A stretch of DNA of 38,572 bases from a virus: IMG/VR virus record IMGVR_UViG_3300028835_001054; one strand, written 5' to 3'. The notes beneath the pieces are model-generated. The model searched no databases. It saw only the letters and a list, made by a program, of their open reading frames with translations, and had not been told where the DNA came from. Shown piece after piece: positions 2,810 through 32,809 of this stretch. How positions within the stretch are numbered: position 1 is the stretch's first letter; every line of letters begins with the position of its first letter. Position numbers and translations under genes: made by a program.

Positions 2810-2940
2810 TGCGCCGGGACGGATCCCCCTGCTATATGAGAAAATTCGATTTCCAGCGTGACACTAAAGCCCTGATTCTGTTGGCTTTCCAATCCCAGAA
2901 TCCGGATCCTGTTCGCCTATATGAGACGCTTCTGGAGACG

Positions 2941-5160: not shown

Positions 5161-5193
5161 TTTTGCTCTCTTCGAAGCCTTGAGAGAAGCAAA
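5161..5193 (-). repeat. 33-nt palindromic element, single copy, 2 nt after the major capsid stop codon
   Basis: Plus strand TTTTGCTCTCTTCGAAGCCTTGAGAGAAGCAAA. The capsid TAG is at 5196..5198. Confidence 0.9.
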
Positions 5194-12508: not shown

Positions 12509-12925
12509 TCACTCCTCAGCATCTGGGAATGGATCATCACCCAGACCGACAAAATTGATAAATACGCGTCCTGGAGTATCGATCTCCAGCTTCATTTCCG
12601 GCTTCAATCCTGCGCGGTCCAGAATATCCCGCGCCGCTCCCAGCTTGACGGCCTCCGTTTTCGCGTTCAGCATCAGCTCCTGGAGAACTGGCAACGCATC
12701 CAGCGCAAGCGAGATCATCCGCGACCTGGACAGATCAAAGAGCTCCTGTTTCTTCTGTTCCCAATAGGCTTGCACTTTTGGGATTGTCAAAAGTCTGCTT
12801 GCCTTCGATGCTGCAATGTCATCATTCTTTGGCTTATAGCCAGCATCTTTGTATGCCTGCGTATACGTCTTACCTTCCAGGAGCCCATTGATGAAAAGTA
12901 TCTGACGGTTATTTATCTCCGGCAT
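12509..12925 (-). CDS. terS: Terminase small subunit (138 aa)
   Basis: MPEINNRQILFINGLLEGKTYTQAYKDAGYKPKNDDIAASKASRLLTIPKVQAYWEQ is the typical HTH N-terminus of Terminase_2-type small subunits. It lies upstream of terL. Confidence 0.75.
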   Translation of the reverse strand: MPEINNRQILFINGLLEGKTYTQAYKDAGYKPKNDDIAASKASRLLTIPKVQAYWEQKKQELFDLSRSRMISLALDALPVLQELMLNAKTEAVKLGAARDILDRAGLKPEMKLEIDTPGRVFINFVGLGDDPFPDAEE

Positions 12926-13298
12926 CCTTGATCGCCTCTCGAAATCGCTTAGCAAGTCGCATCCGTGATTTCTGAATCGTCATGGATCCTGCGGCATATC
13001 CGACGGTTTTGATCAGTTCTGCGATGGTATTGATCTGGAGAGTGGTATGGATTCGGGGATTGTCAGGATGGAGCTCGATTTCTGAAAGCGGTAGTATCTC
13101 CGTATCCAGTTTTGCAACGAGTTCCTCGGTGGATTGGGCTGGCCTGCTAAATTTCGGGTTTGCCATTTTAACACCAGGATTGTTAAAACGGCTGGAAGGC
13201 AAAACAAACCCCGGTCGGGAAATACTTTGCCCTCCAACCGGGGTTTGTTTCAGCAAAGGATTCGGCAAGATAGGCTCAAGTATCTTGCTGTATCCCAT
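12909..13298 (-). CDS. ParB N-terminal-like domain protein (start uncertain: 13298 or ATG 13166)
   Basis: ILPLSEIELHPDNPRIHT..INTIAELIKTVGY resembles the ParB/Srx-fold box (HP.NPR). First gene downstream of the predicted promoter at 13325..13353. Confidence 0.4.
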   Translation of the reverse strand: MGYSKILEPILPNPLLKQTPVGGQSISRPGFVLPSSRFNNPGVKMANPKFSRPAQSTEELVAKLDTEILPLSEIELHPDNPRIHTTLQINTIAELIKTVGYAAGSMTIQKSRMRLAKRFREAIKDAGDK

Positions 13299-13324
13299 CG
13301 AAAAGATGTTACCATATCACTCCA

Positions 13325-13353
13325 ATTATACCAAGATACTGTGAATTGATCAA
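13325..13353 (-). promoter_or_regulatory. Sigma70-type promoter with extended -10 (candidate packaging/late operon promoter)
   Basis: Minus strand TTGATC-17 nt-TATAAT with TGG immediately upstream (TGGTATAAT). The same 9-mer occurs at the two switch promoters. Confidence 0.45.
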
Positions 13354-13612
13354 GGAATCTTTTTAACTTCTGTTAGTAATAGCCCCATAATGAAACTTAT
13401 GCAGACCAATCACGCCCGTAGATGCGCTATTTACGCGGGTTGGAATTTTGTGACATGGTTATGCCATGAAATGGTAGGATTTCTCTTTTTCCTGGCATGA
13501 TTCTATACAAATGGTTTGTATTTCTTGAACGATTCGGCATGAGGTAGGCAAGATGGCCTGCCGGTGTGATTACTTCTTGTTTAAGTTCTGGGACTTGATT
13601 CGATCTAATTTT

Positions 13613-13813
13613 TTATTTGTTGTGTTGATGAATCTGACCGTGCCCTGCGTTTCGTATGCAAATCATATTTTCCACCGCTTCATCCATATCGCTTTTGAGC
13701 GAGTAGCCAATCAATTCTTTCCCTTTCATTGCCAAATATACCGGCGCTGGATAATAAATCATCATAGCATCTTCCGGGATAGTATCCACCTCTATGATCT
13801 TTATTTCGATCAT
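13613..13813 (-). CDS. Hypothetical small protein (66 aa)
   Basis: ATG 13813 is preceded by GGAGGTG. Last gene of the early-left operon. Confidence 0.4.
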   Translation of the reverse strand: MIEIKIIEVDTIPEDAMMIYYPAPVYLAMKGKELIGYSLKSDMDEAVENMICIRNAGHGQIHQHNK

Positions 13814-13827
13814 TGCCGCACCTCCTT

Positions 13828-14196
13828 TTAGTATCTCCACATGATTCTCTGGCTTTTAGCTTGATCAGAATCAGCGTGAATGAAATTCTTTCCTACGCCG
13901 ATCCGCGTGAACCCAGCCCGAATTAGCCCAAATATAACAGCAAATCGCTCAGAACTCGACGCCACCCGAATATCAGCCGCTAATCCTACTTCGTGCGAGC
14001 TGGACTTCGATCCGCCGACTGCCGCGTTGTGCGCGTCACATCTGAAGCCGCTGTTGATGATAAACGGAATTCCTGCAATACTCCGAGCCATCTGGAGTTT
14101 GCGAATAAAGCCTATATACATCTCTATCTTACCGCAACAGGGACATCTGAACTCGTCCACCGAAAAATTCTCTGATAATCTTTCAGATACTCTCAT
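13828..14196 (-). CDS. Endolysin, peptidase M15-type (zinc D-Ala-D-Ala carboxypeptidase fold)
   Basis: FSVDEFRCPCCG, GFRCDAHNAAVGGSKSSSHEVGLAADI and FIHADSD give the H..D...H zinc ligand pattern of M15 phage lysins. ATG 14196 follows AAGGAG. Confidence 0.75.
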   Translation of the reverse strand: MRVSERLSENFSVDEFRCPCCGKIEMYIGFIRKLQMARSIAGIPFIINSGFRCDAHNAAVGGSKSSSHEVGLAADIRVASSSERFAVIFGLIRAGFTRIGVGKNFIHADSDQAKSQRIMWRY

Positions 14197-14232
14197 TAAG
14201 ATCACGCTCCTTTTGTGTGTTTTTAATCGAAA

Positions 14233-14433
14233 TCAAAATACCTTTTTAGGCTTTCCCAACTGCTCCGCTTGATGTATTTCAACGTCAATCAGACGGCAGT
14301 GGATGTTATTATGTCCTGCCCGGCCGCAATATGAGCAAACCTTCGAAGCGCGCGCTATCTTGTCAAATTTCGCTTCCGTGATCTTTGCGCTTTTGCTTCT
14401 CTCAATACATCGAAGAGAGCAAAAGTCATTTCT
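14233..14433 (-). CDS. Startless 66-codon open frame in phase with the TGA of 14434..15114; contains a CCHC zinc knuckle (possible readthrough extension or decayed C-terminus)
   Basis: Codon-by-codon reading gives TGA(14434-36) RNDFCSLRCIERSKSAKITEAKFDKIARASKVCSYCGRAGHNNIHCRLIDVEIHQAEQLGKPKKVF TGA(14233-35). The frame contains no ATG/GTG/TTG. CX2CX4HX4C lies at 14296..14337. Confidence 0.4.
   Translation of the reverse strand, partial: RNDFCSLRCIERSKSAKITEAKFDKIARASKVCSYCGRAGHNNIHCRLIDVEIHQAEQLGKPKKVF
14391..14424 (+). repeat. 33/34-nt palindromic element, 9 nt downstream of the TGA at 14434
   Basis: TTTTGCTTCTCTCAATACATCGAAGAGAGCAAAA. Confidence 0.9.
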
Positions 14434-15114
14434 TCATAGCCCTTTCTGTTTCAGAAAGTTGTCTAGATCCCGGCGATCTTTTGTTTCCCGCTCTTCATGT
14501 GTTAGTTTAGCATCTTTATCAGGCCATTCGCCAGAGATCCGCTCAATACCTTTTTCAGATTCTATCAATTTGGAACAAGCCGCTATGTTGAAAGGTAGGC
14601 AATCAATTTCCCTGAGCGTAAACTTGACAATCGGAATGTCTATGATAATTCGATACCGAAATTCCCCGATGTATTGATATTTCTTCACCAGGTTAAGATT
14701 TGCTCTCTTCGATGCTTTGAAGGTAGTACCTGAAGTAAAATCTGAGATCTTGCGGATGCCATCGGAGATCCGCCTCAGGATCCAGTTATTGGCGCCCACG
14801 TTATAATCCAGAACCACTTCTTTTTCCCCCTGGAGCATATTGAACATGCCCCATCTTCGGCGCTTGCGATGTTTTTCCAGGACAGGACAATTAGCATAAG
14901 CGCAGTATCCGCCGGCATAGTTGACCCCGGCTGGTACGCCATCCGGCAGGAGCTTTCCCTTTCCAAATCTTCCCCTGGACGCAATGACTTTGATGTTATT
15001 TCTGAGAAAAAGTCTGCCAATTCCGCGCAGCTTTACCTCGAAAACTTTACCCCGGAGTTCGCTTACTAGCGGAGTGTTTCCCATCTTCCATTGATAATTC
15101 CATTTATTGCTCAT
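14434..15114 (-). CDS. Hypothetical protein (226 aa) carrying an in-frame long-variant repeat insertion
   Basis: ATG 15114 is preceded by AAGGGAG. No family recognised. Residues DFTSGTTFKASKRAN are encoded by the repeat at 14698..14742. Confidence 0.45.
   Translation of the reverse strand: MSNKWNYQWKMGNTPLVSELRGKVFEVKLRGIGRLFLRNNIKVIASRGRFGKGKLLPDGVPAGVNYAGGYCAYANCPVLEKHRKRRRWGMFNMLQGEKEVVLDYNVGANNWILRRISDGIRKISDFTSGTTFKASKRANLNLVKKYQYIGEFRYRIIIDIPIVKFTLREIDCLPFNIAACSKLIESEKGIERISGEWPDKDAKLTHEERETKDRRDLDNFLKQKGL
14698..14741 (-). repeat. Long (44-nt) variant of the palindromic element, inside ORF 14434..15114
   Basis: Plus strand ATTTGCTCTCTTCGATGCTTTGAAGGTAGTACCTGAAGTAAAAT. Same architecture as 25372..25416 and 35875..35918. 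Confidence 0.9.
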
Positions 15115-15133
15115 AATTTATTTACCGCTCCCT

Positions 15134-15379
15134 TCAGAAAGGCCAGCCCAGCGCGCGCAAGCCGTCTGCCTGTTGCTCGTCTTTCGCTTCCGTCATTAGC
15201 AAGCCCCAGCGCGCACTGAAAAGTTCCGCCGCTAACATTCCCAGTGATGGTGTTATATGGAATGTCTTGCCCCATGTTTCGCCCCTGCGTTTCTTTAACA
15301 TATCATAAACATCGTCTATAGATTGCTCCATCATTCTCCGCGTGATTTCTCTGATTTCTTTCCAATCTTCCGGCTCCAT
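15134..15379 (-). CDS. Hypothetical small protein (81 aa)
   Basis: ATG 15379 (MEPEDWKEI...) is preceded by AAGGAGG. Confidence 0.45.
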   Translation of the reverse strand: MEPEDWKEIREITRRMMEQSIDDVYDMLKKRRGETWGKTFHITPSLGMLAAELFSARWGLLMTEAKDEQQADGLRALGWPF

Positions 15380-15453
15380 AGTTTGCCTCCTTTTCCCTCG
15401 CTTGAAAACGCTTCCCGTAAATAAAAACCGAAGCGTTTCCAAACAGTATTGGA

Positions 15454-15597
15454 TTATCTAGCCAGGTCGATCAAGTTTGCACACATTTTGAGAGCGACAC
15501 CTATCGCTAGAATGATCCCCGCGTAGATTCCGATCAGAATCGAAGCTCGCGCTAGTCCCTGCTTTCTGGTAAGAAGTAAATTCTTTATCCTTTCCAT
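15454..15597 (-). CDS. Small single-TM protein (47 aa), not in the ORF track
   Basis: GAGGTGAAAACG-ATG gives MERIKNLLLTRKQGLARASILIGIYAGIILAIGVALKMCANLIDLAR-TAA. One hydrophobic helix. Confidence 0.45.
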   Translation of the reverse strand: MERIKNLLLTRKQGLARASILIGIYAGIILAIGVALKMCANLIDLAR

Positions 15598-15616
15598 CGT
15601 TTTCACCTCATCATGA

Positions 15617-15737
15617 TTATGCTTCTCTCAAGGCTTCGAAGAGAGCAAAATTAGCTTCTCTTGAGGCTTCGAAGAGAGCGAAATTTTCTTCTCTTGCCCC
15701 TGGCTTTTGCTTCTCTCTGAGCATCGAAGAGAGCAAA
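15617..15737 (+). repeat. Cluster of three full copies plus one partial copy of the palindromic element
   Basis: Copies at 15617..15650, 15651..15683 and 15705..15737; partial TTTTCTTCTCTTGCCCCTGGC at 15684..15704. Confidence 0.9.
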
Positions 15738-15935
15738 TCCGGCTGTCTCTGGAACCTTCCAGAGTCCAAAATCACTATACATCTGGCATCTGGTGATATA
15801 CAGTACTATAGCGACCTCTTCTGGATCAATCGCTGTGCATTGGTAAGCTGCTGAATCTTCACTACAGTTCGCCATCAGGTCGTTTGTAAGCTGGCGAATT
15901 TCTTTTGCTGTTGGGCTAGTCTGTTTGCTTCCCAT
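15651..15935 (-). CDS. Hypothetical protein (94 aa) whose last ~30 codons and stop codon are supplied by the repeat cluster
   Basis: ATG 15935 is preceded by GAGGAG. The C-terminus FALFDAQREAKARGKRRKFRSLRSLKRS* is a translation of the repeats in reverse orientation. Confidence 0.45.
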   Translation of the reverse strand: MGSKQTSPTAKEIRQLTNDLMANCSEDSAAYQCTAIDPEEVAIVLYITRCQMYSDFGLWKVPETAGFALFDAQREAKARGKRRKFRSLRSLKRS

Positions 15936-15945
15936 TTTACTCTCC

Positions 15946-16377
15946 TCACAGGTGATCGATTTGCGCTGCAGCTTCTTTGATCTCTGGGTTGCCAATAGCC
16001 ATCAAACGAAGTATGCCATAGATCGTCGTTCCTGAAATCTTGAGCCTGATACATTCTTTCGTGATCGCCTCAAGCCCGCGCTGTATCTCTTTCGCTTTGA
16101 GCCTCGCTATTTCCTCTGTAAGATTGCGGATGCCCGCCTCGAATGTTTCTGCCTCCTCTTTGTTTTTTTCTGCCAGGAGCATAGGCTTCCGCTTTTCTTC
16201 CTCCCTTGCCGACTTTTTGAGATCTTTCGCAACCTGGACTTTCCTCAGCAATTCCTTTTCCTTTTCAGGATCCAGATCCAGATCGCTGAGGATATTCTTG
16301 GTCTGCTTTACTGACCAATCCTCTCTGATGCAATCCTCAATTAGTTCGTTCACATATGTTTCAGTAAAACCGCCCAT
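15946..16377 (-). CDS. Hypothetical coiled-coil protein (143 aa)
   Basis: Charged Lys/Glu-rich central helix. No family recognised. Confidence 0.4.
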   Translation of the reverse strand: MGGFTETYVNELIEDCIREDWSVKQTKNILSDLDLDPEKEKELLRKVQVAKDLKKSAREEEKRKPMLLAEKNKEEAETFEAGIRNLTEEIARLKAKEIQRGLEAITKECIRLKISGTTIYGILRLMAIGNPEIKEAAAQIDHL

Positions 16378-16402
16378 GTTCTTTTTCCGCTCCTTTCTGG
16401 TT

Positions 16403-16693
16403 CTAAAAGACCTTTCGCGAAACAGCTATTCCGGACAACTCTCTGTCGTGATACGCTAATTCCCTTTTCTCCCTAAACCACATGGTCACTTTCTCATGGC
16501 AGTCGGCACACAGGACGACAAGATCGTAAAGGTCTTCATCACCGACATACTCATAGCTGTTATGATGCACATGCAGATTCTTCGTCTCTGCACACAGCGC
16601 GCACCTATATCCGAAACGCTCTAGTGTCGCATTCCTTGTCACGAGCCACGCGTCGGATTTCAGATATATATCGTTATACCATGTTCTGTCCAT
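16403..16693 (-). CDS. HNH-type endonuclease-like protein (96 aa)
   Basis: CALCAETKNLHVHHNSYEYVG....LVVLCADCHEKV gives CxxC...HH-N...CxxCH, the HNH/zinc-finger pattern. Confidence 0.6.
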   Translation of the reverse strand: MDRTWYNDIYLKSDAWLVTRNATLERFGYRCALCAETKNLHVHHNSYEYVGDEDLYDLVVLCADCHEKVTMWFREKRELAYHDRELSGIAVSRKVF

Positions 16694-17470
16694 TTATTCA
16701 GGGTAGTCCTCTGTTATATACCCGTTTCTAATCCTGGACACTAGCGCACCGCCGGGATTCCTAAACGTGATTCCTTTCTCAAAGTCCTTTTTGATCTGTG
16801 CTATCTGCCGGAGAAGATACCGCGTTTCATATTTTGCCGCCAGTTCAGATCGCGCCGGCTCCTTTACGTGATGATAATCTAATTCCCTGCGCGCCTTCTC
16901 GAAATCAGCTTCCGATTTTTCCTCAGTTACCAAAAAACCATTACCACCATTTTTAGGACTTTTCTCAACCCCCTCTCCGGTAGTAACTATATTAATATTG
17001 GTATGGGTATGGTCCTCTCCTCTCTTCTCTTCTGATCTTAGGATGGTGCCCTCTACTGTGCCCTCTACTCGTCCTCTACTGTGCCCTCTACTGCTCCCTT
17101 TTTGTTCCAGTAAGCTATTTCCCCCAGTCCAGACGCCCTTATACAGCAACAGTGATTTATAGTTAATTTCGTACTTTGCGCAGGTGTTTTTACCAAAGTT
17201 TCCGGAGATAACTTTCAATAATGGCTTACCATCTATTCTGAACTTGCACAAATTAGCGCGCCTCCCGCGAACGGATTTCGGGGTATTTCCACCACCCGCC
17301 GCCATCGCCTGAAGGTTATTCAGATCAAATGGCATCTTAAATCCGCGCCTGTTGTGTTCCAGGATGATACCGATCAGAAACGTGAACGACTCTTCGCTCA
17401 GTTTGCATACCAGGCCATATTTGTCAATACCCAGCATTACATCAATCAACGTAAAAGGCCGATCAACCAT
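16694..17470 (-). CDS. Hypothetical protein (258 aa), possibly DNA-binding/replication-associated
   Basis: Sits in the replication/recombination module. Contains a 12-nt tandem repeat. The function is not recognised with confidence. Confidence 0.3.
   Translation of the reverse strand: MVDRPFTLIDVMLGIDKYGLVCKLSEESFTFLIGIILEHNRRGFKMPFDLNNLQAMAAGGGNTPKSVRGRRANLCKFRIDGKPLLKVISGNFGKNTCAKYEINYKSLLLYKGVWTGGNSLLEQKGSSRGHSRGRVEGTVEGTILRSEEKRGEDHTHTNINIVTTGEGVEKSPKNGGNGFLVTEEKSEADFEKARRELDYHHVKEPARSELAAKYETRYLLRQIAQIKKDFEKGITFRNPGGALVSRIRNGYITEDYPE
17046..17092. repeat. Tandem 12-nt repeat, four units (one unit is 11 nt)
   Basis: GTGCCCTCTACT GTGCCCTCTACT CGTCCTCTACT GTGCCCTCTACT. Encodes SRGHSRGRVEGTVEGT on the minus strand. 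Confidence 0.85.
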
Positions 17471-18105
17471 TAATCATCGCCCTTCCTGCCAGATACAGGC
17501 CATCTACCTTTATACGGTGTATCAATTATTTCCATCTCAAGCTGGTATTCCCTTAATATTTCATTCCCCCAAGCATCCCATCCATTTGTCTGCTCGCGAG
17601 CAAATAGTTCAATACGTGGTAGATCGCCAAAGAGATTCACAATGAGTCTGCGAAAGAGATCGGGCTTTTGAGAGTGTGCCAAGCGTTTATGAAATTGCAC
17701 ATTCATTATATCCTTTCTCAATCTCTGGGCTCCTTTTCCTCTTCGGCCTAGTAACAAAATCTCAGGATTGGAACGTGTATAGCGTCCCATACCCATAGCA
17801 GGGATACTCGCCTGTGTCAGTTTGATCCATGTGAAGGCAACTGTTTTATAATCAAAACCCCATGACTCAACAACTGATATACCCTCTTTCAGTTGCGGAT
17901 AAGTGACCCATAGAAAAAGAATAGAATCATCGGCCGCGACATCTTTGACAGGCAAATTACATATGGAATCCGTCCTCATGCAGGGATAATGCGCTTCCGC
18001 GCCTCCTCCATGACTATAGCTTTTGTCAGCATAGAACCACGGCGGATCAGCATAGATTATTTTATAATGTTTTAAAGGAAGTTCTAAAAGGTCATTATAA
18101 ACCAT
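17470..18105 (-). CDS. MT-A70-family N6-adenine DNA methyltransferase (211 aa)
   Basis: IIYADPPWFY (DPPW catalytic motif). ATG 18105 is preceded by AGGAGG 6 nt upstream. Confidence 0.8.
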   Translation of the reverse strand: MVYNDLLELPLKHYKIIYADPPWFYADKSYSHGGGAEAHYPCMRTDSICNLPVKDVAADDSILFLWVTYPQLKEGISVVESWGFDYKTVAFTWIKLTQASIPAMGMGRYTRSNPEILLLGRRGKGAQRLRKDIMNVQFHKRLAHSQKPDLFRRLIVNLFGDLPRIELFAREQTNGWDAWGNEILREYQLEMEIIDTPYKGRWPVSGRKGDD

Positions 18106-18274
18106 ACTTAGCCTCCTGGATCCGCTCCGACATAACGCCTCCATCATTAAAGCGGAGCCGAAGCCCCGCCCTGACAAAGTCTTTCTGCTCCGTCGCACAA
18201 GTTGGCTCCTGAGTGGAAAGTGTCCAGGACGGTGAGGTTATCACCATCCTGGATGGAGTAAAGCTCAGGAGCGC

Positions 18275-20245
18275 TTATTTCGGCGCATCGTTGAGGGCTT
18301 CTTGCTCCTCTTTCTGATTCTGGGTAGGTGCCAGATGTTTTGACAATTCCTGTTCGAGAGTTCTGAGTAGAAGTTCTGCCTCTGGCAGCTTCATCATGCC
18401 CATTCGCTTTGGCTTATATCCGATCACATCTTTAACCTTCACCCTGAAAGCAACCGATCCCAGCGTTTTATACTGCGGAAGGGACGTAGCGAGCGCGCGC
18501 AATCTCTTGAATTGCTCTTTGGTGATCTCCTGTTCTTCATCCGGTGGCTCCGTCTGTCCAGGAAGCACAGGATTGGGATTGTGATCGACTATATCCAGTT
18601 GCGGATTCTCTTCATCAGGTTTGGCATCCGGATCGAAATCTGGCAACCGTCGGATCCGGACAATAGCCTCTGCGTAATCATCCAGAGTCCATGAATCTGC
18701 TGGGGCTTTGTGTAGATTTTCGAGGATCCACGCGTCCCGCTTCTCTACGGTTCCGAATTTCTTGACGCATACCGTAAGTAGATCCTTTGTGAGGTTCCGC
18801 TCCTCTTTTTCCGCTGATTCGATTACAGCGTCAATCTCCGCACGGAGTTCTTGCGCTGTTTCCTCTGTGCCAGTTTTTACCGCATCTTTCACAGCGTCCT
18901 CAACAGGCGTGCCATCTTTCGTGACTGGCTCTGGAAATTCTGCCTGGATCAAGAGGATCGCTTTCTGGAATTGTTCCGCCATCCATTTCGAGAGATCAGT
19001 ATCATCAGGGAAGTGTTCCAGAATCCATACGTCGCGCTCCTGGATTCCAGCGAAACAGGTTGCACCTAATTCCATGAAAGTTGATCGGAGTGCCTCGAGC
19101 TCAGGATCGGAATCTTCGTCCTTTCCGGTATCCACAACATCGCCCAGGACTTTCAGAGCTTTTTGATAATCTTCCACTGTCCAGGCTCCGATAAGCTTTT
19201 CTGCAACCGTTTTGCAGAAAGCATCCCTGTCCTGGATTCCAGCGAATACCGTCGCTCCCAATTCAGCGAAAGCGGCTTTCAGTTGCTCGAGCTCAAGATC
19301 GAATCTTCCGCTCTTCCCTTTCGTTTCCTCTTCTGGCTCCTGTTTCGGTTTGTGCGCCTCTGCTCTCTTCGAAGCCTTGAGAGAAGCAAACGGCATTTTA
19401 TGGATGGCGCTGAAAGCCTTTGCATAATGCGGCGCTTTCCATTTTGTGACAGAAGCTTCGCCCGTGTTCTGGAGTTGCCAGGAGTGCCGATCATCTTCAT
19501 TTGCGAAGAGGTCCTTGATCATCCCAAAATATGATTCTCTGAGCGCTGTTAGATCCTCTCCGCTATCTACCGTCACCGATGCCACTTCAGGAATCTCCTG
19601 GGCAGGCTCCGATGCTTCCAGCGGCGGCTCATTATATGCCTGTAAAGCAGGATTCTCGAATCCGCCGCCGAGTTCCTCAGCGATATATGGTAGATGCTGA
19701 GTTTCCAGTCCCGCGTATCGGAGCGCTCGTGTTACAGCGCATTTTCTGAACATATCGCGCAACATTGTCTCCCAAAACCTGTTCGGCTTATTATCGCTTT
19801 TGCGCCGTTTGATACAATCCTCCAACCACGTTTCCCAGACGTGAGGTCTTTCTCTGTCCTTGATCGTCAAAGTGATTTTGCACACTTTGGGATCGTCAGG
19901 ATCGTCGAATTCATACTCAATATGCTCCAGCCCATTAGCGTATGCCACATCCAGATACTTTCTATAGCCCACTATCGTCTGACCAGGTTCGCCTGCGATC
20001 TTCATAAAGTATACCTCGCCCTTTAGCGGATCCAAATTCAGGGCGCGGCATTTTCCCATGAACCAGAAAATATCATCATCTGTGCCGCCTTTGCATATAT
20101 ATTTTCTCACAAGCTCCTTGTTGATCTGGATTGTCTCATAGCTGTATTGGAGCGGCGCTATCTCCGCGCCGGTTCCCTCTGTTGCTGGCTGTCTGGTTTC
20201 CGCATCCATCTTATCAAGTTCTGCCATGTCATTTTTCTGATTCAT
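18275..20245 (-). CDS. RecT/Redbeta-like single-strand annealing protein with a long repeat-containing C-terminal extension
   Basis: The N-terminal third (CRALNLDPLKGEVYFMKIAG..GQTIVGYRKYLDVAYANG...MFRKCAVTRALRYAG) fits the RecT/Bet pattern. The C-terminal ~400 aa hold four ~50-aa repeats. The start is ambiguous (ATG 20245 or 20227). Confidence 0.65.
   Translation of the reverse strand: MNQKNDMAELDKMDAETRQPATEGTGAEIAPLQYSYETIQINKELVRKYICKGGTDDDIFWFMGKCRALNLDPLKGEVYFMKIAGEPGQTIVGYRKYLDVAYANGLEHIEYEFDDPDDPKVCKITLTIKDRERPHVWETWLEDCIKRRKSDNKPNRFWETMLRDMFRKCAVTRALRYAGLETQHLPYIAEELGGGFENPALQAYNEPPLEASEPAQEIPEVASVTVDSGEDLTALRESYFGMIKDLFANEDDRHSWQLQNTGEASVTKWKAPHYAKAFSAIHKMPFASLKASKRAEAHKPKQEPEEETKGKSGRFDLELEQLKAAFAELGATVFAGIQDRDAFCKTVAEKLIGAWTVEDYQKALKVLGDVVDTGKDEDSDPELEALRSTFMELGATCFAGIQERDVWILEHFPDDTDLSKWMAEQFQKAILLIQAEFPEPVTKDGTPVEDAVKDAVKTGTEETAQELRAEIDAVIESAEKEERNLTKDLLTVCVKKFGTVEKRDAWILENLHKAPADSWTLDDYAEAIVRIRRLPDFDPDAKPDEENPQLDIVDHNPNPVLPGQTEPPDEEQEITKEQFKRLRALATSLPQYKTLGSVAFRVKVKDVIGYKPKRMGMMKLPEAELLLRTLEQELSKHLAPTQNQKEEQEALNDAPK
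19361..19390 (-). repeat. Palindromic element inserted in frame in the RecT-like gene
   Basis: Plus strand TGCTCTCTTCGAAGCCTTGAGAGAAGCAAA, read as FASLKASKRA between protein repeats 1 and 2. Confidence 0.9.
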
Positions 20246-20465
20246 TTTCTTTCTCACTTTCTTGAAGGAGCACCTCAGCGTTTTCAACGGCGTTGATGAA
20301 TTCATCCCGCTTTTGTTTCGCCATAGCGATCCAGTGTCTTGTTTCGGTCCTGAGAAAATGGAGATCTTCCGAATCCGTTCGCTGCCAATCCTGGCTGGTG
20401 AGCGCTTTCAGATAATCGATAACGCATCTCAGCGCGTGGACTTTTTGATCGTGTATGCTTCCCAT
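20229..20465 (-). CDS. Hypothetical small protein (78 aa)
   Basis: ATG 20465 is preceded by AGGGAG. Lies between the nuclease and annealase genes. Confidence 0.4.
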   Translation of the reverse strand: MGSIHDQKVHALRCVIDYLKALTSQDWQRTDSEDLHFLRTETRHWIAMAKQKRDEFINAVENAEVLLQESEKENESEK

Positions 20466-20476
20466 TAAGATACTCC

Positions 20477-21247
20477 CTATGGCTTGACTCTGCCGCCATT
20501 TTCCGCCTCGCACTCCTGCCAGTATCGACAATAGCGCTGAGAGCACAGGTTATTATTAACTCGGTTAGCGTACCAGATCTCCGCCTCGATACCTTTCGCT
20601 ACTCCGGATAGGAGAGTCAGAAAATACCGCTCTTCGGCTTCCGTCACCTCTACTGGAAAAGATAGAATCCTGGGAACCTTTCCCCGGACACCGTAATCTA
20701 TTCTAGCCTCCATATCTGGGCTCTGGAGCTTGCGGCGCATAGCGCTGGTGTAGCCGTAGGTCTGGAGCAAATGCGTATCACGCGGCCGATTCAGACCGCG
20801 CGCGGTGGTTTTGTTTTCGATAACGATCCCATCGTCGCTCACTAGATCCACTCTGCCTGTGAAAGGCCACGGCTTATTGCTGAAAGTCATGGTAAACATC
20901 TGCTCAACTTCCACTGGCTGAATCTTATATGCGATAACGCTTTGATACTCAGCCAGAAGCATGATCCCTGAATCTTTTTCGATTCCGCGATCCTCTCCCT
21001 GCCTGAGCTCTATCTCATGTTCGTCAAAGCCCGCGCTGAAAATGGCCAGGACATCATCCAGCGGAAGATCCCGATATGTGTCGCATTTCTGCAAATAATT
21101 GTGCTTTGTGGTATCGTGGAAAACCGTTCCTATGGCAAGTGCTATATTGGCAGGTTTCCAGAGTTCAAGGCAATATTGGCAGTAGTAGCGGTATGGGCAA
21201 ATCAGGAAGGTGGTTACTCGGCTGCTGGATAAACGTTTTACTTGCAT
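20477..21247 (-). CDS. PD-(D/E)XK Cas4/RecB-like exonuclease (256 aa)
   Basis: ATG 21247 is preceded by AGGAGG. N-terminal Cys (FLICPYRYYC), GRVDLV..IVIENKT (D...E.K core) and a C-terminal Cys cluster CSQRYCRYWQEC. Adjacent to the annealase. Confidence 0.65.
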   Translation of the reverse strand: MQVKRLSSSRVTTFLICPYRYYCQYCLELWKPANIALAIGTVFHDTTKHNYLQKCDTYRDLPLDDVLAIFSAGFDEHEIELRQGEDRGIEKDSGIMLLAEYQSVIAYKIQPVEVEQMFTMTFSNKPWPFTGRVDLVSDDGIVIENKTTARGLNRPRDTHLLQTYGYTSAMRRKLQSPDMEARIDYGVRGKVPRILSFPVEVTEAEERYFLTLLSGVAKGIEAEIWYANRVNNNLCSQRYCRYWQECEAENGGRVKP

Positions 21248-21285
21248 CTTATTGAGCCTCCTTTTGATCCTTTGCTGATTCTCCG

Positions 21286-21492
21286 TCAATCGAAGATTAT
21301 GATGTCCTTCAACTCCATCTTGAGAGCTGCCGCAGCCGCTTCGACTTTCTTTGTGTGGAATCCTCCATTTCTCCACCGGAAAAGCGTCCGCGCAGAAATA
21401 TCAACGCTTTTTTCATTGAGCAAATCCGCCAGACTTCCAACAGTAGACACGCCTTCGGTTTCCTCGATCATTCGATCTATGTTTACCCTCAT
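21286..21492 (-). CDS. Small HTH DNA-binding protein (68 aa)
   Basis: VSTVGSLADLLNEKSVDISARTLFRWRNG is HTH-like. RBS AGGTGGTGA. Confidence 0.45.
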   Translation of the reverse strand: MRVNIDRMIEETEGVSTVGSLADLLNEKSVDISARTLFRWRNGGFHTKKVEAAAAALKMELKDIIIFD

Positions 21493-21576
21493 TATCTTTC
21501 ACCACCTTTCGGTTGGAATCTAATGACTCAAACTAACACAAGCTAGTTAGAGAACTAGAGAAAAAAATATGATAAT

Positions 21577-21951
21577 TCATTCATCTCTCTTACGAAGTTG
21601 TGCTTTAAGAGACAATACCTCATGCTGTAGTTCTTGGCTCTGCTTGGTGAGCGCAAGTATAATCGTGTCTTTTCTTTCCCGGAGATCATTCAATTCTTCC
21701 CATATTTCCCTGGCCTGATCATCTGCCAGAACGGATACGCGCACTTTCAAGCACTTAGCGATCTTCTTGGCAAGATAGAGGCTGACGCTGGTTTTAGCCC
21801 GAAGGATTTTATATAAAGTATCCCTGTGTATCGCCTTCCCTGTCTCCTGGCTCAAGCGAACCATGTCAGGGACTTTCAGATCCTGGAGTTTCATCTCTCT
21901 CTTAACGTTTTCCGCGAATTCTACTTTGACATCCTCTCTCTCTTGATTCAT
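21577..21951 (-). CDS. Cro/XRE-like HTH regulator with C-terminal coiled coil (124 aa)
   Basis: First gene of the leftward operon, divergent from the repressor gene. PDMVRLSQETGKAIHRDTLYKILRAKTSVSLYLAKKIAKCLKV is an XRE-type HTH. RBS GGGAGG. Confidence 0.6.
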   Translation of the reverse strand: MNQEREDVKVEFAENVKREMKLQDLKVPDMVRLSQETGKAIHRDTLYKILRAKTSVSLYLAKKIAKCLKVRVSVLADDQAREIWEELNDLRERKDTIILALTKQSQELQHEVLSLKAQLRKRDE

Positions 21952-21995
21952 TTCTATATCCTCCCTTGATAGGGTTTATAACTCTATATCAGTTA

Positions 21996-22025
21996 ATTAT
22001 ACCATAGAGCGACACGATATGTCAA
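21996..22025 (-). promoter_or_regulatory. Leftward early promoter (near-consensus sigma70, extended -10)
   Basis: Minus strand TTGACA-18 nt-TATAAT with TGG upstream of the -10 (TGGTATAAT). About 45 nt upstream of the Cro-like start. Confidence 0.6.
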
Positions 22026-22085
22026 CCTAAAATAGGCTTTGATTATATCTAAAGCCTCTTTAACTAACAAAAGTGTCGATTTTAG

Positions 22086-22114
22086 TATACAAATATCTTG
22101 AAATCTGGTATAAT
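22086..22114 (+). promoter_or_regulatory. Rightward promoter for the repressor operon (extended -10)
   Basis: TATACA-17 nt-TATAAT preceded by TGG (TGGTATAAT). Overlapped by the inverted repeat CTGGTA-12 nt-TACCAG (22105..22128). Confidence 0.45.
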
Positions 22115-22205
22115 GAGATAATTACCAGTTATACGATCATTTATTTTTTTAAGCCGCCGACCAAGTTTGGCGGAGCAAATGCCAGAACAGATCAGGAGGT
22201 ATCGA

Positions 22206-22922
22206 ATGAGAAAAAAGCCATTTACTTTGACTCTCAAGGAGAAAGAGACGATAGGGCTAATCATCAAAGACAGGCGAAACAGACTCGGCTTAACTCTCGA
22301 CGATCTAGCTGGCGCGATAGGGAGCACAAACGCATATTTATCCATGCTAGAAAACAGTAAGCGCATAGCTTCAGATAGAGTCCTCCGCCAGATCACTGAG
22401 GAACTCGATTTGGATTATGAGTACCTGCGAGAACTTTCAGAAAAAGAGCGGTATGAAAGAGAAGCAAACAAGATTAGATCCAAATATTTTGAGATACAGA
22501 AAATAGCTCAGGATAAATGCATGAACCTGGATAGCTCTGTTCTGTATGTTCCTATACTTGGGACCGTTCCTACTCAAGCTCCACTTGCAGATGAATCGGA
22601 GACAGCTATCTGTGTGCCTCAGAATTGGATCAGTGAGGCAGACAAAATCTTCGCTCTACAGATCAGTGATGACACCATGACCGGTCGGCTTGAGGATACC
22701 GACCTCGTAGCTGTCAAGAGAGGACTCGATCCAGAAAATAATGATATAGTAATAGTCCGCGTAAATGATATGATAATGGCGAAGACAATCGAGTTTATTG
22801 GTAATATGGTTGTGTTAAGAAGCACAAACGGACAGCCTGAGACGATGCACTTCACCGAAAAAGATAAGGAGCAGATGGAGGTAATCGGCAAAGTGATTTT
22901 CAGGATTACCCAGGCTTCGTGA
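22206..22922 (+). CDS. CI/LexA-like repressor: XRE HTH plus S24 peptidase-like C-terminal domain (238 aa)
   Basis: ATG 22206 lies 7 nt after AGGAGG. HTH RLGLTLDDLAGAIGSTNAYLSMLENSKR. C-terminal ALQISDDTMTG...DIVIVRVNDMIMAKTIE aligns by eye with the G(D/N)SM...K pattern of S24 domains, with Thr in the Ser position. Confidence 0.7.
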   Translation: MRKKPFTLTLKEKETIGLIIKDRRNRLGLTLDDLAGAIGSTNAYLSMLENSKRIASDRVLRQITEELDLDYEYLRELSEKERYEREANKIRSKYFEIQKIAQDKCMNLDSSVLYVPILGTVPTQAPLADESETAICVPQNWISEADKIFALQISDDTMTGRLEDTDLVAVKRGLDPENNDIVIVRVNDMIMAKTIEFIGNMVVLRSTNGQPETMHFTEKDKEQMEVIGKVIFRITQAS

Positions 22923-22934
22923 AAAGGAGATGCT

Positions 22935-23432
22935 ATGTCACTGAATTGTGGAGAACCGCAACAGAAAGAGGAAGAGGAACCTGAAATAGAGAAGAAGAAA
23001 GGCATTTGGGCTGGTGGGGATGTATCTTATAAATCTGGCTGTCTAGTAGCTCTGATTGTTGTTGCTTTCGCGATTCTTGCCGTTGTAATATTTCAATTCT
23101 TATCATCAGATGGCGATACAAAAAAGCCAGATATTCTCAAGTTTAGCGCCTCAGTCTCATTCACGGGAACCCAATTTATCATCATTAACCAGGATACTTT
23201 TGATTGGCTCAATGTCAAGCTGGAGATAAACGCCGGATTGATCGCCGGCGGTTATTCACTGGAGCATCCAGTTATGAAAGCCGGGCAGAGCTACACAGTT
23301 GGAGCACTGCAATTTGCTAAATCCGATGGCACGCGTTTTAATCCAATCACAATGAAGCCTCAGAAATTAGCTATTTATTCACGCGATAAGCGTGGCATGA
23401 TAAAGGGATCATATCATGCCCGATGGAAGTAA
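22935..23432 (+). CDS. Membrane-anchored protein (165 aa), candidate superinfection-exclusion/immunity-region moron
   Basis: AAGGAG RBS. Acidic N-terminus, one TM helix (CLVALIVVAFAILAVVIFQFL), then a beta-rich ectodomain. Located directly after the repressor gene. Confidence 0.35.
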   Translation: MSLNCGEPQQKEEEEPEIEKKKGIWAGGDVSYKSGCLVALIVVAFAILAVVIFQFLSSDGDTKKPDILKFSASVSFTGTQFIIINQDTFDWLNVKLEINAGLIAGGYSLEHPVMKAGQSYTVGALQFAKSDGTRFNPITMKPQKLAIYSRDKRGMIKGSYHARWK

Positions 23433-23460
23433 ATCTGTTCGTCAAATCGGCTCAAAATCA

Positions 23461-23548
23461 TCCGCACTATTGAGTACAGTAATATCCGCACTATCGGGTT
23501 AAATAGTCCGCACTATTGAGTACAGTGATCCGCACTATTGAGTTAAGT
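23461..23548 (+). repeat. Four direct iteron-like repeats upstream of the rep gene
   Basis: TCCGCACTATTGAGTACAGT (23461), TCCGCACTATCGGGTTAAAT (23485), TCCGCACTATTGAGTACAGT (23507), TCCGCACTATTGAGTTAAGT (23529). Spacing 24/22/22 bp. Confidence 0.8.
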
Positions 23549-23571
23549 TTTTGGAGGCAAAGTCAATAATC

Positions 23572-24729
23572 ATGCGCTTTTATAGACCCAGAGACTTCTT
23601 TATTACTCTTTTAAAACGATTTAAAAGGGCGCCTGTGCAATTAGAGCTTGATCCGGACTCTCCCGAATCTTCTTCTCTCAAGGCTTCGAAGAGAGCAAAA
23701 TTTGCTTCTCTCAAGGCATCGAAGAGAGCAAAATCCACCCCACCGAAAGAAGTCAAGGAAGCAAAAGAGAAAAAGCCAAAGCCCTCCCCGGAGATAGTGA
23801 GAAGCGAACTCAACCTGGAAAAGAACGCGGTCTTTGCAGTCTCCACTTACAGGGAAAGGTCCAGGGAGGTCATCAGAACCTATGAGACGGATTCGGGATC
23901 CATGGAGCGCAGAGTCGTTGTAGGCAGAGCGACGGACGGCTCCGAAGTCGGTATCCTCACCACGACTCATTTCAAGCTGTATCTTGCCCTCCTGGAACTC
24001 TGGGAGAAAGCAGGGAAGCCAGTTAGCCAGCCTGTCCATTTCACCGTCCTCAAGTTGATAAAACGTCTCAAATTGGTGGATTCAGGGAATAATTATAAGA
24101 ACATGCTGAAATCAATGGAAGGACTGAGAAGCATACCGATACGATTCATTGATAGCTTCCAGACCAAAGATGGAGAATTCCGGTCAACAGGGCATTTGAG
24201 CGTCCTATCGTACCTGGATATATACGAGAGAAAGAGAAGGACGAAAGGCGGAGATAAGGTCTATGGATACGGGGAATTCCAGTTTGACAGGCACATTCTT
24301 ATGTCGCTTGTGGAAAATTTCACGCACCCTCTTCGATTAGATGTGATCACCAGTTTCAGAAAACATCGGGAACTAGCTATACTCCTCTACACATATCTTG
24401 ATCGCCAATTAGCCTTCAGAAGAAAGTTTGAGATTACGCTGAAAAAGCTCTACACGCAACTTGATCTGTCTCAGGCATACATTACCTATCCATCACAGAG
24501 GAAATCGAAAATAGAGCCCGTTCTGGAGCAACTGATAGGCAAAGAACTATCTACAGGGAAGTTATCATACTGCGAAACCGAGAAGACGAAGGACGGGAGG
24601 GATTATAAATTGGTTTGCAGAAAGACCGGCGTTACGCAAATCCCCGCGCCGGAGCCTGTCAAATTAGATTGGAGCCTGGCCCTGGACAAACTGTTATCTC
24701 AGATGGAGCAAATGAAAGACAACCGATGA
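23572..24729 (+). CDS. Replication initiator, RepA-like winged-helix protein (385 aa)
   Basis: Iterons lie immediately upstream. The central region (GILTTTHFKLYLALLELWEKAG...FTVLKLIKRLKL..GNNYKNMLKSMEGLRSIPIRF...HRELAILLYTYLDRQL) resembles plasmid/phage replication initiator protein A-type sequences. ATG 23572 follows GGAGG; the track TTG 23551 is less likely. Confidence 0.55.
   Translation: MRFYRPRDFFITLLKRFKRAPVQLELDPDSPESSSLKASKRAKFASLKASKRAKSTPPKEVKEAKEKKPKPSPEIVRSELNLEKNAVFAVSTYRERSREVIRTYETDSGSMERRVVVGRATDGSEVGILTTTHFKLYLALLELWEKAGKPVSQPVHFTVLKLIKRLKLVDSGNNYKNMLKSMEGLRSIPIRFIDSFQTKDGEFRSTGHLSVLSYLDIYERKRRTKGGDKVYGYGEFQFDRHILMSLVENFTHPLRLDVITSFRKHRELAILLYTYLDRQLAFRRKFEITLKKLYTQLDLSQAYITYPSQRKSKIEPVLEQLIGKELSTGKLSYCETEKTKDGRDYKLVCRKTGVTQIPAPEPVKLDWSLALDKLLSQMEQMKDNR
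23668..23733 (+). repeat. Two abutting copies of the palindromic element in frame inside rep
   Basis: TCTTCTTCTCTCAAGGCTTCGAAGAGAGCAAAA plus TTTGCTTCTCTCAAGGCATCGAAGAGAGCAAAA, read as SSSLKASKRAK FASLKASKRAK. Unit boundaries coincide with codon boundaries. Confidence 0.9.
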
Positions 24730-25082
24730 AGGAATGGATAACTGTCAAGGAAGCCGCGAAACTTCGGAAATGCACGGAAAGAAACATTCTGCAACTGATA
24801 AAGAAAAATGAGCTTGAGGCCAGAAAGGAAGGGCATCGCTGGCTGATACGGAAAGATTCAATAGAAAAGATTTCCGAAAAATCTCCGAATAATTCCGAAC
24901 TCATTTCCGTACTTAAAGCAGAACTCCAGGAGAGGAATGATCAGATAAAACAGTTGCAGGAAGAATTAAGCAAGGTCCGAGAAAGATCCGATACGATTAT
25001 TCTTAGACTTACAGAACACAATCAGCAATTATTGGAAGATAAGCGCCCCTGGTATCACAAGCTATTCAAGCGGCATCAATAA
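24726..25082 (+). CDS. HTH (MerR/excisionase-like) DNA-binding protein with coiled-coil tail (118 aa)
   Basis: ATGA overlap with the rep stop. MKEWITVKEAAKLRKCTERNILQLIKKNELEARKEGHRWLI is a helix-turn-helix_17-type N-terminus. The C-terminus is paralogous to that of 21577..21951. Confidence 0.5.
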   Translation: MKEWITVKEAAKLRKCTERNILQLIKKNELEARKEGHRWLIRKDSIEKISEKSPNNSELISVLKAELQERNDQIKQLQEELSKVRERSDTIILRLTEHNQQLLEDKRPWYHKLFKRHQ

Positions 25083-25104
25083 CACCGCTGGCGGAACTTC
25101 CAGC

Positions 25105-25150
25105 GCTCCAGCGAGAGCCGCTACGGTATCAACGCTCGCGCCCCTGGAGC
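25105..25150 (+). other. Stem-loop just after the early-right operon
   Basis: GCTCCAG...CTGGAGC outer stem (7 bp), with an inner CGAGAGC/GCTCGCG imperfect stem. Confidence 0.3.
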
Positions 25151-25317
25151 AGTCAAGGATTTTCAGGTGTCAGAATTCTGCACGGAAGCTGCTTTCCGTG
25201 GCCACGGGATCCCTTCCAGGAAGTGGAATCCGCAAGCCAGTCATAGTGCGGGATCTTGATTTTACCTCAAAAGTGTCAGGATTCCGCACATAATATTCGA
25301 AAGGATTTCAGGAGGGA

Positions 25318-25370
25318 AGGCGGCTCCCGGTCTGTAAGATGAGGAGAGTTTTTTGTTTCAGGAGCCGCCT
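25318..25370 (+). terminator. GC-rich hairpin with T-run in the convergent intergenic region
   Basis: AGGCGGCTCC-33 nt-GGAGCCGCCT followed by GATTTTG. The loop is unusually large for an intrinsic terminator. Confidence 0.35.
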
Positions 25371-25371
25371 G

Positions 25372-25416
25372 ATTTTGCTCTCTTCGATGCCTTGAAGGTA
25401 GTACCTGAAGCAAAAT
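25372..25416 (-). repeat. Long (45-nt) variant of the palindromic element, 17 nt after the last late-operon stop codon
   Basis: Plus strand ATTTTGCTCTCTTCGATGCCTTGAAGGTAGTACCTGAAGCAAAAT, followed by a truncated arm TTTGCTCTGG (25415..25424). Confidence 0.9.
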
Positions 25417-25433
25417 TTGCTCTGGTTGTGACG

Positions 25434-26324
25434 TTACTGGAATAATCCTATAGCGATCAGATCGTTGATCATCGTGCCGACTATATCAGCCAATTCCGCG
25501 ACTGCTACAGTATTAGCATCGTAATCGCGATCTTCCAATTCATTCGCTACTGTGTACGTCTCAGGACTGTCGAAAAGGGTTACCGTATGAATCGCTCCGC
25601 CATCATTCATGACTATTTTGCAATTCCCTGAAGTGTCTTGCCATATCCGCATCCTATCATTAGCAGGATTCGCTACGGTGTCCTGCTCAAAACCGACGAA
25701 GCAATTAGTTCCGCCAGATAACACCAACTCGTCGCTCCCTGCTATGCCTACGGTGATCGTCCACGCTCCCACTCCATCTCCAACCTGGATATTATCCTCA
25801 AAAGTAACTTCCCCCGCTCCTGAATCGCGGATATTATCTGCTCTCAAATTGGGCACATCCAGATAAAGCCCCGCATCAAAAGCCATGTGGATTCCGACAG
25901 TGATCAGCGCAGCTCCTGAATGATCCAGATTGTCAGTATATATAGTCCCTGTCACATCAAGATCGCCATCCACATTAAGAGTGGTATTCATAGCGATAGC
26001 TGCAGCGCCGGAATCGTCTATCGTATCTACCGTCAGAGATCCTACAACATCCAGCGCACCACCAACGCTAAGAGCGCCTGTTATTTGTACCCCATCATCC
26101 AGGATGATATCTCCGCCGGAAAAATAGATCTCCAGATTGCCGCCCCACTTTATCCCCTTGTCAACGACAATATCAAAATTGCCGTCAGAAACGTTATTAA
26201 CGAGATCCCCTAGTCCTTCACCGATAGCATTGATATTATCTACCAGTGTATTCAGAAAAGCAGGATTGACCTGTGTGCTGGTCGTTACTGCCGGCAAACT
26301 TGGATCGTCTGGAAATGTACCCAT
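25434..26324 (-). CDS. Tail fibre / receptor-binding-type protein (296 aa)
   Basis: Last gene of the tail module. ATG 26324 is preceded by GGAAGGAGAG. Internal periodic D-x-SGA repeats (DDSGAAAI, DHSGAALI, RDSGAGEV) suggest a beta-helical fibre. Confidence 0.45.
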   Translation of the reverse strand: MGTFPDDPSLPAVTTSTQVNPAFLNTLVDNINAIGEGLGDLVNNVSDGNFDIVVDKGIKWGGNLEIYFSGGDIILDDGVQITGALSVGGALDVVGSLTVDTIDDSGAAAIAMNTTLNVDGDLDVTGTIYTDNLDHSGAALITVGIHMAFDAGLYLDVPNLRADNIRDSGAGEVTFEDNIQVGDGVGAWTITVGIAGSDELVLSGGTNCFVGFEQDTVANPANDRMRIWQDTSGNCKIVMNDGGAIHTVTLFDSPETYTVANELEDRDYDANTVAVAELADIVGTMINDLIAIGLFQ

Positions 26325-26325
26325 T

Positions 26326-27399: not shown

Positions 27400-27411
27400 A
27401 TAGGACTCCCC

Positions 27412-32531: not shown

Positions 32532-32809
32532 TTTCTTCCCTTTGCTTTGAGCTTTGCAAGCATCTGTTCCGAAGTCACGCGCTTGACAATCCGCGTTCTA
32601 TTACTTCGAGATGGTCTTTCCTTTGATCTTCCCCTTGATCTTTCTATGATGTCCAGTTTCTTTTTCATGAAACCGTAGAGATATGGCAATTCGTATTTCA
32701 GGACTGCCTCGCGTGTATGACCTGAGTCCAGAAGGCAAAAACTTATCTCTTCCAGCGTGTCTAACTGGTCTCTGAGGCTATATCCTGATTCTCCGCCTGT
32801 GTAGGGTTT
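32528..32809 (-). CDS. -1 frame extension of the tail assembly chaperone (GT-type product, about 92 extra codons)
   Basis: The -1 frame is closed by TGA at 32810..32812, then open from AAA CCC (32809) to TGA at 32528..32530, which overlaps the tape-measure ATG (ATGA). All triplets were checked by eye and contain no stop. Confidence 0.65.
   Translation of the reverse strand, partial: KPYTGGESGYSLRDQLDTLEEISFCLLDSGHTREAVLKYELPYLYGFMKKKLDIIERSRGRSKERPSRSNRTRIVKRVTSEQMLAKLKAKGRK

Follow-up and report, generated by a model that had tools for sequence, protein, structure and literature searches.

Rickettsia palindromic elements (RPEs) insert in frame into genes, where they encode a conserved peptide (PMC10969869). 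Judged by analogy, they are functionally the closest known system to a much shorter repeat found in a phage genome, IMG/VR virus record IMGVR_UViG_3300028835_001054, whose full 38,572-nt sequence is here termed the window. The repeat unit, TTTGCTTCTCTCAAGGCWTCGAAGAGAGCAAAA, is a 33-nt imperfect palindrome, and a loose search finds 14 copies and one truncated copy of it in this 38-kb genome. One copy lies within a gene for a RecT-family protein. Probably, although by no means certainly, these 33 nt belong to a REP/MITE-like family of miniature mobile DNA elements that are palindromic, non-autonomous and mobilised in trans. The element would have spread recently through this phage, and it is also present in at least one unrelated contig.

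Like RPEs, the element is a dispersed palindromic repeat that lies in unrelated genes, in frame and always in one frame, and leaves the host protein compatible with its function. Non-coding copies exist in both cases as well, and neither repeat has a known transposase (PMC10969869). However, RPEs measure ~100-150 bp and belong to an obligate intracellular bacterium, whereas the element measures 33 or 42 nt, is three to five times shorter, and resides in a phage. Unlike RPEs, it also forms head-to-tail 33-nt doublets. There is no detectable sequence relationship between the two, which are set apart here without direct comparison to RPE consensus sequences.

Other families of short repeats share some of these properties. 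Like REP/REPIN sequences (RAYT, Y1 HUH), the element is an imperfect palindrome of 20-40 nt with a bulged stem base and occurs in many, mostly extragenic copies; these lie mostly just past stop codons, are often clustered, and show no target-site duplication. Unlike in REP/REPIN systems, the phage has no RAYT gene, the doublets are direct and not inverted, and a third of the copies lie inside genes. A GTAG or CGTC head marks the two REP superfamilies (PMC3733652); unlike these, the element lacks such a head at either end. Like bacterial MITEs such as ERIC/RU, BOX and Nezha (PMC10969869; PMC2759123), the element appears to be non-autonomous and bounded by inverted repeats, and it occasionally forms in-frame fusions. 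MITEs, however, are usually 50-500 bp long, with target-site duplications and ends that match a parent insertion sequence (IS), none of which is seen for the element.

Two further systems are less similar in organization. The PeSLs of T4-type phages combine a strong early promoter with a terminator stem-loop, occur strictly between genes, and owe their spread to recombination (PMC2839356). Like PeSLs, the element is a short conserved repeat found at phage gene boundaries and tied to indels or replacements between close relatives (PMC2839356); unlike PeSLs, it carries neither promoter nor terminator, and some copies lie inside open reading frames (ORFs). Like PARCELs, the element can be a coding repeat, has dyad symmetry in its DNA, and is horizontally distributed (PMC2996958). 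PARCELs, however, are 25-residue domains that form long tandem arrays in dedicated ORFs, whereas the element occurs as single 11-codon units in unrelated genes and in non-coding DNA. The element should not be filed as a member of the RPE, REP, MITE or PeSL families, and literature searches found no phage equivalent of it. If confirmed, it would be the smallest known palindromic element that inserts in frame into genes and, as far as these searches went, the first such case in a phage.

The copy in the RecT-family gene occupies the following position.

18275-20305, minus strand: RecT-family gene; the gene-caller start at 20245 gives a protein of 656 aa (P0001)
19358-19390, minus strand: element copy within that gene, in frame, encoding FASLKASKRAE (residues 286-296 of the 656-aa protein)

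Residues 59-214 of the protein match the Pfam RecT domain (E 5.5e-23). Past this core are four or five helical repeats of ~55 aa joined by acidic linkers, and the first of these (residues ~231-284 of P0001) matches three of the later ones (E 3e-6, 1e-5 and 0.007). On the minus strand from 19390 to 19358 the copy reads TTT GCT TCT CTC AAG GCT TCG AAG AGA GCA GAG, and the protein runs from ...AFSAIHKMP through the element to AHKPKQEPEEETKG and then repeat 2. The initial annotation had placed an element at 19361-19390, in frame and between repeat 1 and the acidic linker. Frame and location are borne out, and those 30 nt are an exact match within a full unit of 33 nt. Because the RecT copy is identical in 30/30 nt to intergenic copies (for example, 5164-5193) and the family inserts elsewhere, it is read as an insertion.

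Structural prediction and homologues bear on the site of this copy. In an AlphaFold model of the RecT protein (48 sequences), the per-residue confidence score (pLDDT) is 93-97 up to residue 280 and then falls to 74, 51 and 34 in three successive blocks of ten residues, which places the copy at a domain edge entering a flexible linker. A short helix is predicted at residues 286-297. The two closest homologues, P0002 (50% identity, N-terminal part) and the RecT protein of a related phage contig, L021 (44%), align up to ...A(I/L)xxM and then diverge into linkers that are unrelated and mostly acidic, starting with PRRKKSVKEEE and VGPRKKEAEE. Across 47 aligned homologues, the hypervariable segment past repeat 1 is unalignable and often EPDP-rich. 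An equivalent basic 11-mer in homologues, which the initial annotation had named as the result that would speak against an insertion, is absent from all of them: a FASLKASKRAE-like peptide occurs in 0/47, and the two closest hold only RRKKSVK or RKK. Paralogous repeat 4 ends in ...RRLP followed by DFDPDAKPDEE and resembles ...HKMP plus AHKPKQEPEEE once the element is removed, a likeness that lends weak extra support to an insertion in RecT.

The remaining copies, together with the replication gene that carries two of them, are as follows.

23572-24729, plus strand: gene for an iteron-type replication initiator (Rep), 385 aa, no Pfam match
23668-23733, plus strand: tandem doublet of 2 x 33 nt in the replication-initiator gene, in frame, SSSLKASKRAK FASLKASKRAK
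14698-14739, minus strand: 42-nt variant in the 226-aa ORF 14434-15114, in frame, encodes FTSGTTFKASKRAN
32824-32856, minus strand: copy in the acidic C-terminal tail of the 152-aa ORF 32761-33219, in frame, SASLEASKRAN
2746-2811, plus strand: tandem doublet, antisense to local minus-strand genes, probably intergenic
5161-5193, minus strand: intergenic sense copy, 2 nt past the stop of ORF 5196-6368
14392-14424, plus strand: intergenic antisense copy, 10 nt past the stop of ORF 14434-15114
15618-15650, 15651-15683, truncated left arm 15684-15697, and 15706-15738, plus strand: cluster, antisense to local genes
25373-25414, minus strand: variant copy between convergent genes, exactly at the homology break relative to L021
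35876-35917, plus strand: variant copy, intergenic, antisense

The family stands out clearly from the background of the window, in which the 33-mer has five matches at three or fewer mismatches, compared with none in 100 shuffles. Its consensus is TTTGCTTCTCTCAAGGC(T/A)TCGAAGAGAGCAAA(A/T). An 11-nt centre is enclosed by the arms TTTGCT(T)CTCT and AGAGAGCAAA, which constitute an inverted repeat of 10 bp and leave a single T bulged; the first four letters of the element are TTTG and the last four CAAA. The arms make up nearly the whole element, a feature that bears on the comparison with the terminal inverted repeats of MITEs. In a 42-nt subfamily, consisting of the copies at 14698, 25373 and 35876, a 9-nt mini-palindrome, AGGTACTAC, is inserted in the left arm, and two of its members (25372-25414 and 35876-35917) are identical in 43/43 nt though 10 kb apart. 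At three loci, copies follow one another head to tail at an exact 33-nt period with no spacers between units. In the doublets 2746-2811 and 23668-23733, the first unit has T at position 18 (which gives CTTCGAAG) and the second unit has A. The length of the element is a multiple of three, its sense strand contains no stop codon in any phase, and 5/6 of its frames are open.

Variation is distributed unevenly along the unit. The right block at positions 19-29, TCGAAGAGAGC, shows no change in 15 copies (14 in the window plus one on another contig, L005), whereas the six loop positions 13-18 account for 15 changes across the same copies. The chance that 15-31 evenly spread events would spare the 11 block positions is between 2e-3 and 2e-6. 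Since coding and non-coding copies alike keep the right block unchanged, it is the nucleotide sequence that is constrained and not the peptide. Furthermore, an invariant block of 11 nt implies a recognition site for a putative partner.

Five copies (14698, 19358, 23668, 23701 and 32824) lie in four genes. The initial annotation had described all five as sharing one orientation, one frame and one peptide. Orientation and frame hold for every copy, but the 14698 copy has only KASKRA in common with the others. The remaining 9/14 copies are non-coding and lie 2-19 nt past a stop codon wherever the distance can be assigned. That intergenic copies occur in both orientations is likewise correct, but the distribution is uneven, with seven antisense, one sense and one between convergent genes. 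An ORF starting at TTG reads through the doublet 2746-2811; nothing supports that ORF.

Empty sites provide a direct comparison. At two genic loci, Rep and the 226-aa gene, sequence alignment shows precise insertions relative to homologues. For Rep, 120 homologues were found, and 11/11 of those aligned lack the 22 aa. One of them, P0004 (86% identical), is exactly 22 aa shorter, and its contig, L021, aligns at the DNA level on both sides of the doublet with a clean 66-nt gap. The Rep insert falls within residues 16-60, where pLDDT is <50. For the 226-aa protein, a search of a 5.8-billion-protein set returned a single homologue, P0124 (54% identity), which lacks exactly 14 aa (42 nt); the insert sits between the conserved blocks RISDGIRxIxD and YQxIGEFRY. 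Junction ambiguity at the empty sites amounts to 4 nt (AATC) and 2 nt (AT) of microhomology. An in-frame, tolerated insertion of nucleotides, as initially proposed, is therefore evident as clean presence and absence at both loci (66 and 42 nt). The proposed placement in linkers or disordered regions agrees with the models of RecT and Rep; for the 152-aa protein, whose C-terminal tail is acidic, it is plausible.

The same pattern extends to whole contigs. L021 shares 68-91% nucleotide identity with the window over most of ~12600-31283 and contains neither a copy of the element nor its 11-nt core motif. Its homology breaks exactly at 23669/23732 and 25373/25415. Relatives L023, L026 and L001 also carry no copy and no analogous repeat family, which indicates that the element is not a conserved feature of this phage group. 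No relatives of the RecT, 152-aa, 226-aa or 390-aa proteins were found in IMG/VR. In contrast, L005, a 1.1-kb contig from another metagenome that shows no other similarity to the window, holds a copy that is 32/32 identical to copy 23701 and 31/32 to the consensus. This copy sits between a stop codon and the next ribosome-binding site. Because L021 is without copies and the unrelated L005 has one, the family is lineage-specific here and horizontally shared.

Exact-pattern scans gave 13 matches in a metagenome collection and four in a genome collection, of which only L005 is a true copy; ~4.3 pattern matches are expected by chance in the genome collection. A paired match in one Pseudomonadales metagenome-assembled genome is part of a 600-nt repeat and not the element. 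Two different exact patterns had no match among IMG/VR viral contigs, BLAST of the doublet found none among GenBank phages or PLSDB plasmids, and Rfam gave none at E <= 1. Exact-pattern scans of the genome, metagenome and viral collections revealed no parent IS.

If the favoured reading is correct, the element would be mobilised in trans by an enzyme encoded outside the window. Recognition by this enzyme would depend on the hairpin or inverted repeat, above all on the invariant right block. Copies would persist only where they are harmless, either just past stop codons or in genes that tolerate an 11-aa basic peptide, and the tolerated genic sites would be domain edges and disordered tails. 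The RecT copy would lengthen the linker after repeat 1 and have no function of its own. The 33-nt doublets could arise by insertion beside an existing copy or by movement of a doublet as a unit; the 66-nt doublet itself may have been the unit moved into the Rep gene. This scheme would also entail a direction for the events at 25373, and the inserts would be neutral.

Several results weigh against a mobile element. No transposase, RAYT or IS200/IS605-like gene is present in the window, only a weak HNH of 96 aa. Neither empty site, in L021 or in L027, shows a target-site duplication. The copies share no conserved motif in their flanks, which vary on the left side (GAA, GAT, CCG, CCT, GCT, GGA, AAT and AGA), and the predicted stability of the element hairpin is unremarkable (z = -0.7 and -1.5). 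Outside this phage a single copy was found, and three other assemblies of the phage are 100% identical to the window and thus offer no view of presence/absence polymorphism. Finally, the shared frame and orientation of the genic copies is a real bias that is unexplained. The chance that three further loci would match the first locus in orientation and phase is ~0.008. Hydropathy is alike in the used and the alternative frames, and tolerance of the peptide does not obviously explain the phase bias. Non-coding loci, in turn, are antisense to local transcription in 5/6 cases, counting L005 (Fisher p = 0.024 relative to genic loci).

One ORF is a possible exception to the rule that genic copies are in sense orientation. 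ORF 15651-15935, on the minus strand and called on the ENA contig as a 94-aa gene, would have as its last ~35 codons the antisense copies 15706 and 15651. Its tail would read ...FALFDAQREAKARGKRRKFRSLRSLKRS* and end at a TAA inside copy 15651, created there where position 3 has changed from T to A. The element may have replaced or extended the 3ʹ end of a gene at 15651-15995 on this strand.

The alternative that fares best, although rather unlikely, is that the repeat does not transpose at all. Instead, it would be a portable recombination cassette, a short linker through which modules are shuffled between co-infecting phages by homologous or microhomology recombination, possibly spread by the phage's own RecT/exonuclease pair in the manner of PeSLs, which set a precedent (PMC2839356). 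The phage does encode both RecT and a PD-(D/E)XK nuclease. Additionally, the copy at 25373-25414 stands exactly at a breakpoint, where L021, in place of the 41-nt variant, has a different segment of 196 nt that holds a 68-aa gene. In RecT, the nucleotide homology to L021 stops 56 nt from the element, and the downstream remainder of the gene is mosaic. Block 13833-16190 is specific to the window, since L021 lacks a counterpart and has ~1 kb of other genes there. Five copies and the truncated one fall within this block, where copies are denser than anywhere else in the genome and several small ORFs of unknown function also lie. The same 32-mer is also found at a gene boundary in the unrelated L005. 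However, the Rep and 226-aa loci are clean insertions in collinear, conserved sequence and not module junctions, and the copies lack the promoter and terminator of PeSLs. Moreover, recombination alone fails to explain how 33 nt enter a site without prior homology.

A bolder extension of the favoured reading, speculative and considered improbable, combines movement with recombination. The element would then represent a class of codon-compatible micro-transposon not recognised before, virus-borne, exactly 11 codons long and free of stops on its sense strand. A putative enzyme would recognise its invariant 11-nt block; the element would hop between unrelated phages, and the identical 33-bp patches left behind would serve as portable landing pads for RecT-type recombination. 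If true, the element would not only reshape proteins at the edges of their domains but also drive mosaicism among phages.

Quite unlikely is the proposal that the copies are dispersed binding sites, of an operator-, stoperator- or centromere-like kind, for a DNA-binding protein of the phage or its host and are kept by selection, the genic copies being readable by accident. A recognition site would be expected to show such an invariant 11-nt block beside a variable centre; the arms are spaced ~two helical turns apart, and the tandem period of 33 bp corresponds to ~three turns. Furthermore, the helix-turn-helix (HTH) part of the phage repressor differs from that of L021, which has no sites, and a plasmid-type replicon makes a partition function conceivable. 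Against this, no copy or half-site occurs in the repressor/cro intergenic region (21951-22206) or anywhere outside the full copies, the window contains no ParA/ParB-like gene, and the orientation of copies relative to transcription is mixed. Binding sites normally evolve in place, whereas the events here are precise insertions of 33, 42 and 66 nt, and the same sequence is present in the unrelated L005.

Selection at the level of the peptide is very improbable. According to this view, several proteins have acquired (F/S)ASLKASKRA(K) as a short linear motif, such as a patch that binds DNA or a partner, and the non-coding copies are by-products. The single frame of the five genic copies and the DNA-binding nature of two host proteins, RecT and Rep, would fit such a motif. 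However, the 9/14 copies that are non-coding are equally conserved, most of the differences among the genic copies change the amino acid (F to S, A to S/T, K to E/N), non-coding copies also preserve the invariant part, and homologues function without the peptide.

An assembly or library artefact, such as an adapter-like sequence, is hardly credible: the core ATCGAAGAGAGC loosely resembles the start of the Illumina adapter, ATCGGAAGAGC, and the independent assemblies may all come from the same reads, but three assemblers give the identical sequence, copies lie in frame within long ORFs whose frames are intact, sequences differ between copies, and one copy is present in a different metagenome. 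The repeat does influence assembly in another respect. A Logan contig from SRR5211005 (L003), an independent short-k-mer assembly of this phage, corresponds to window 15623-23701 and starts and ends inside element copies, and assemblies at k=31 fragment because of the 32-nt repeat. For practical purposes, repeats of this kind disrupt assembly with short k-mers and give rise to gene ends that are spurious or altered.

Other candidate functions were considered and rejected. A CI operator or stoperator was ruled out, as there is no half-site near cI/cro and orientation is mixed. No copy was called as a sigma-70-type promoter or as an intrinsic terminator, and a T tract is missing. A CRISPR-like array or solitary repeat does not fit units that abut without spacers, and Rfam gave no CRISPR match. 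A hairpin element of the IS200/IS605 type (PATE-like) was set aside because there is no fixed tetra- or pentanucleotide target and left flanks differ.

If confirmed as a mobile element, this repeat would demonstrate that the tightly packed and strongly selected genes of viruses can absorb selfish DNA at domain boundaries. For RecT, a replication initiator and a tail chaperone, its copies would show in nature where insertions are permitted. In addition, an undiscovered enzyme or binding partner is indicated by the invariant 11-nt block. Patches of 33-41 bp that are identical in unrelated phages are long enough to be annealed by RecT-type proteins and could help to account for the origin of mosaic junctions.

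The genome that carries the element is that of a tailed, temperate, siphovirus-like phage with a plasmid-type replicon. Window ends 1-144 and 38429-38572 form an exact direct repeat of 144 nt, which indicates a circularly closed assembly and a genome of ~38.4 kb. The phage genes include those for terminase, portal, protease, tape measure, Laminin_G tail proteins, a CI-like repressor, and RecT/exonuclease; the neighbours of the RecT gene encode a PD-(D/E)XK nuclease and an MT-A70 methylase. Directly upstream of the Rep gene, at 23455-23551, are four iterons of 22-24 nt (ATCCGCACTATTGAGT...), and the AlphaFold model of Rep matches RctB domains 2-3 (E 1.8e-12) and RepE54. The same layout of iterons and Rep is present in the relatives L021 (9884-9981) and L023 (4074-4165). 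No integrase was seen in the window, which together with the iteron replicon suggests a plasmid-like prophage.

The CI-like repressor (HTH_3 plus Peptidase_S24) aligns in DNA with L021 only over window 22404-22932. Its N-terminal HTH part (window 22206-22404, compared with L021 8852-9047) does not align, which suggests a different immunity specificity. Separately, a 96-aa protein encoded at 16403-16693 on the minus strand carries a weak motif of HNH nucleases, for which the Pfam match (E 9.5e-4) falls below the cut-off; the HNH portion of the NCBIfam IscB model is matched as well (E 1.4e-8). Its gene is ~0.7 kb from the densest element cluster.

The 152-aa ORF 32761-33219 that carries the copy at 32824-32856 is a probable tail assembly chaperone. 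Window 32528-32860, on the minus strand, resembles the G/GT arrangement of such chaperones, with a canonical slippery heptamer, A_AAC_CCT, at 32809-32803 and a -1 frame that is open from 32821 to the start of the tape-measure gene at 32528-32531. The element was rejected as a frameshift stimulator of a G/GT-like pair, as it lies 5ʹ of the slippery site and not 3ʹ. A TGA at the 3ʹ end of the copy closes the -1 frame, and the frameshift window starts right after the element.

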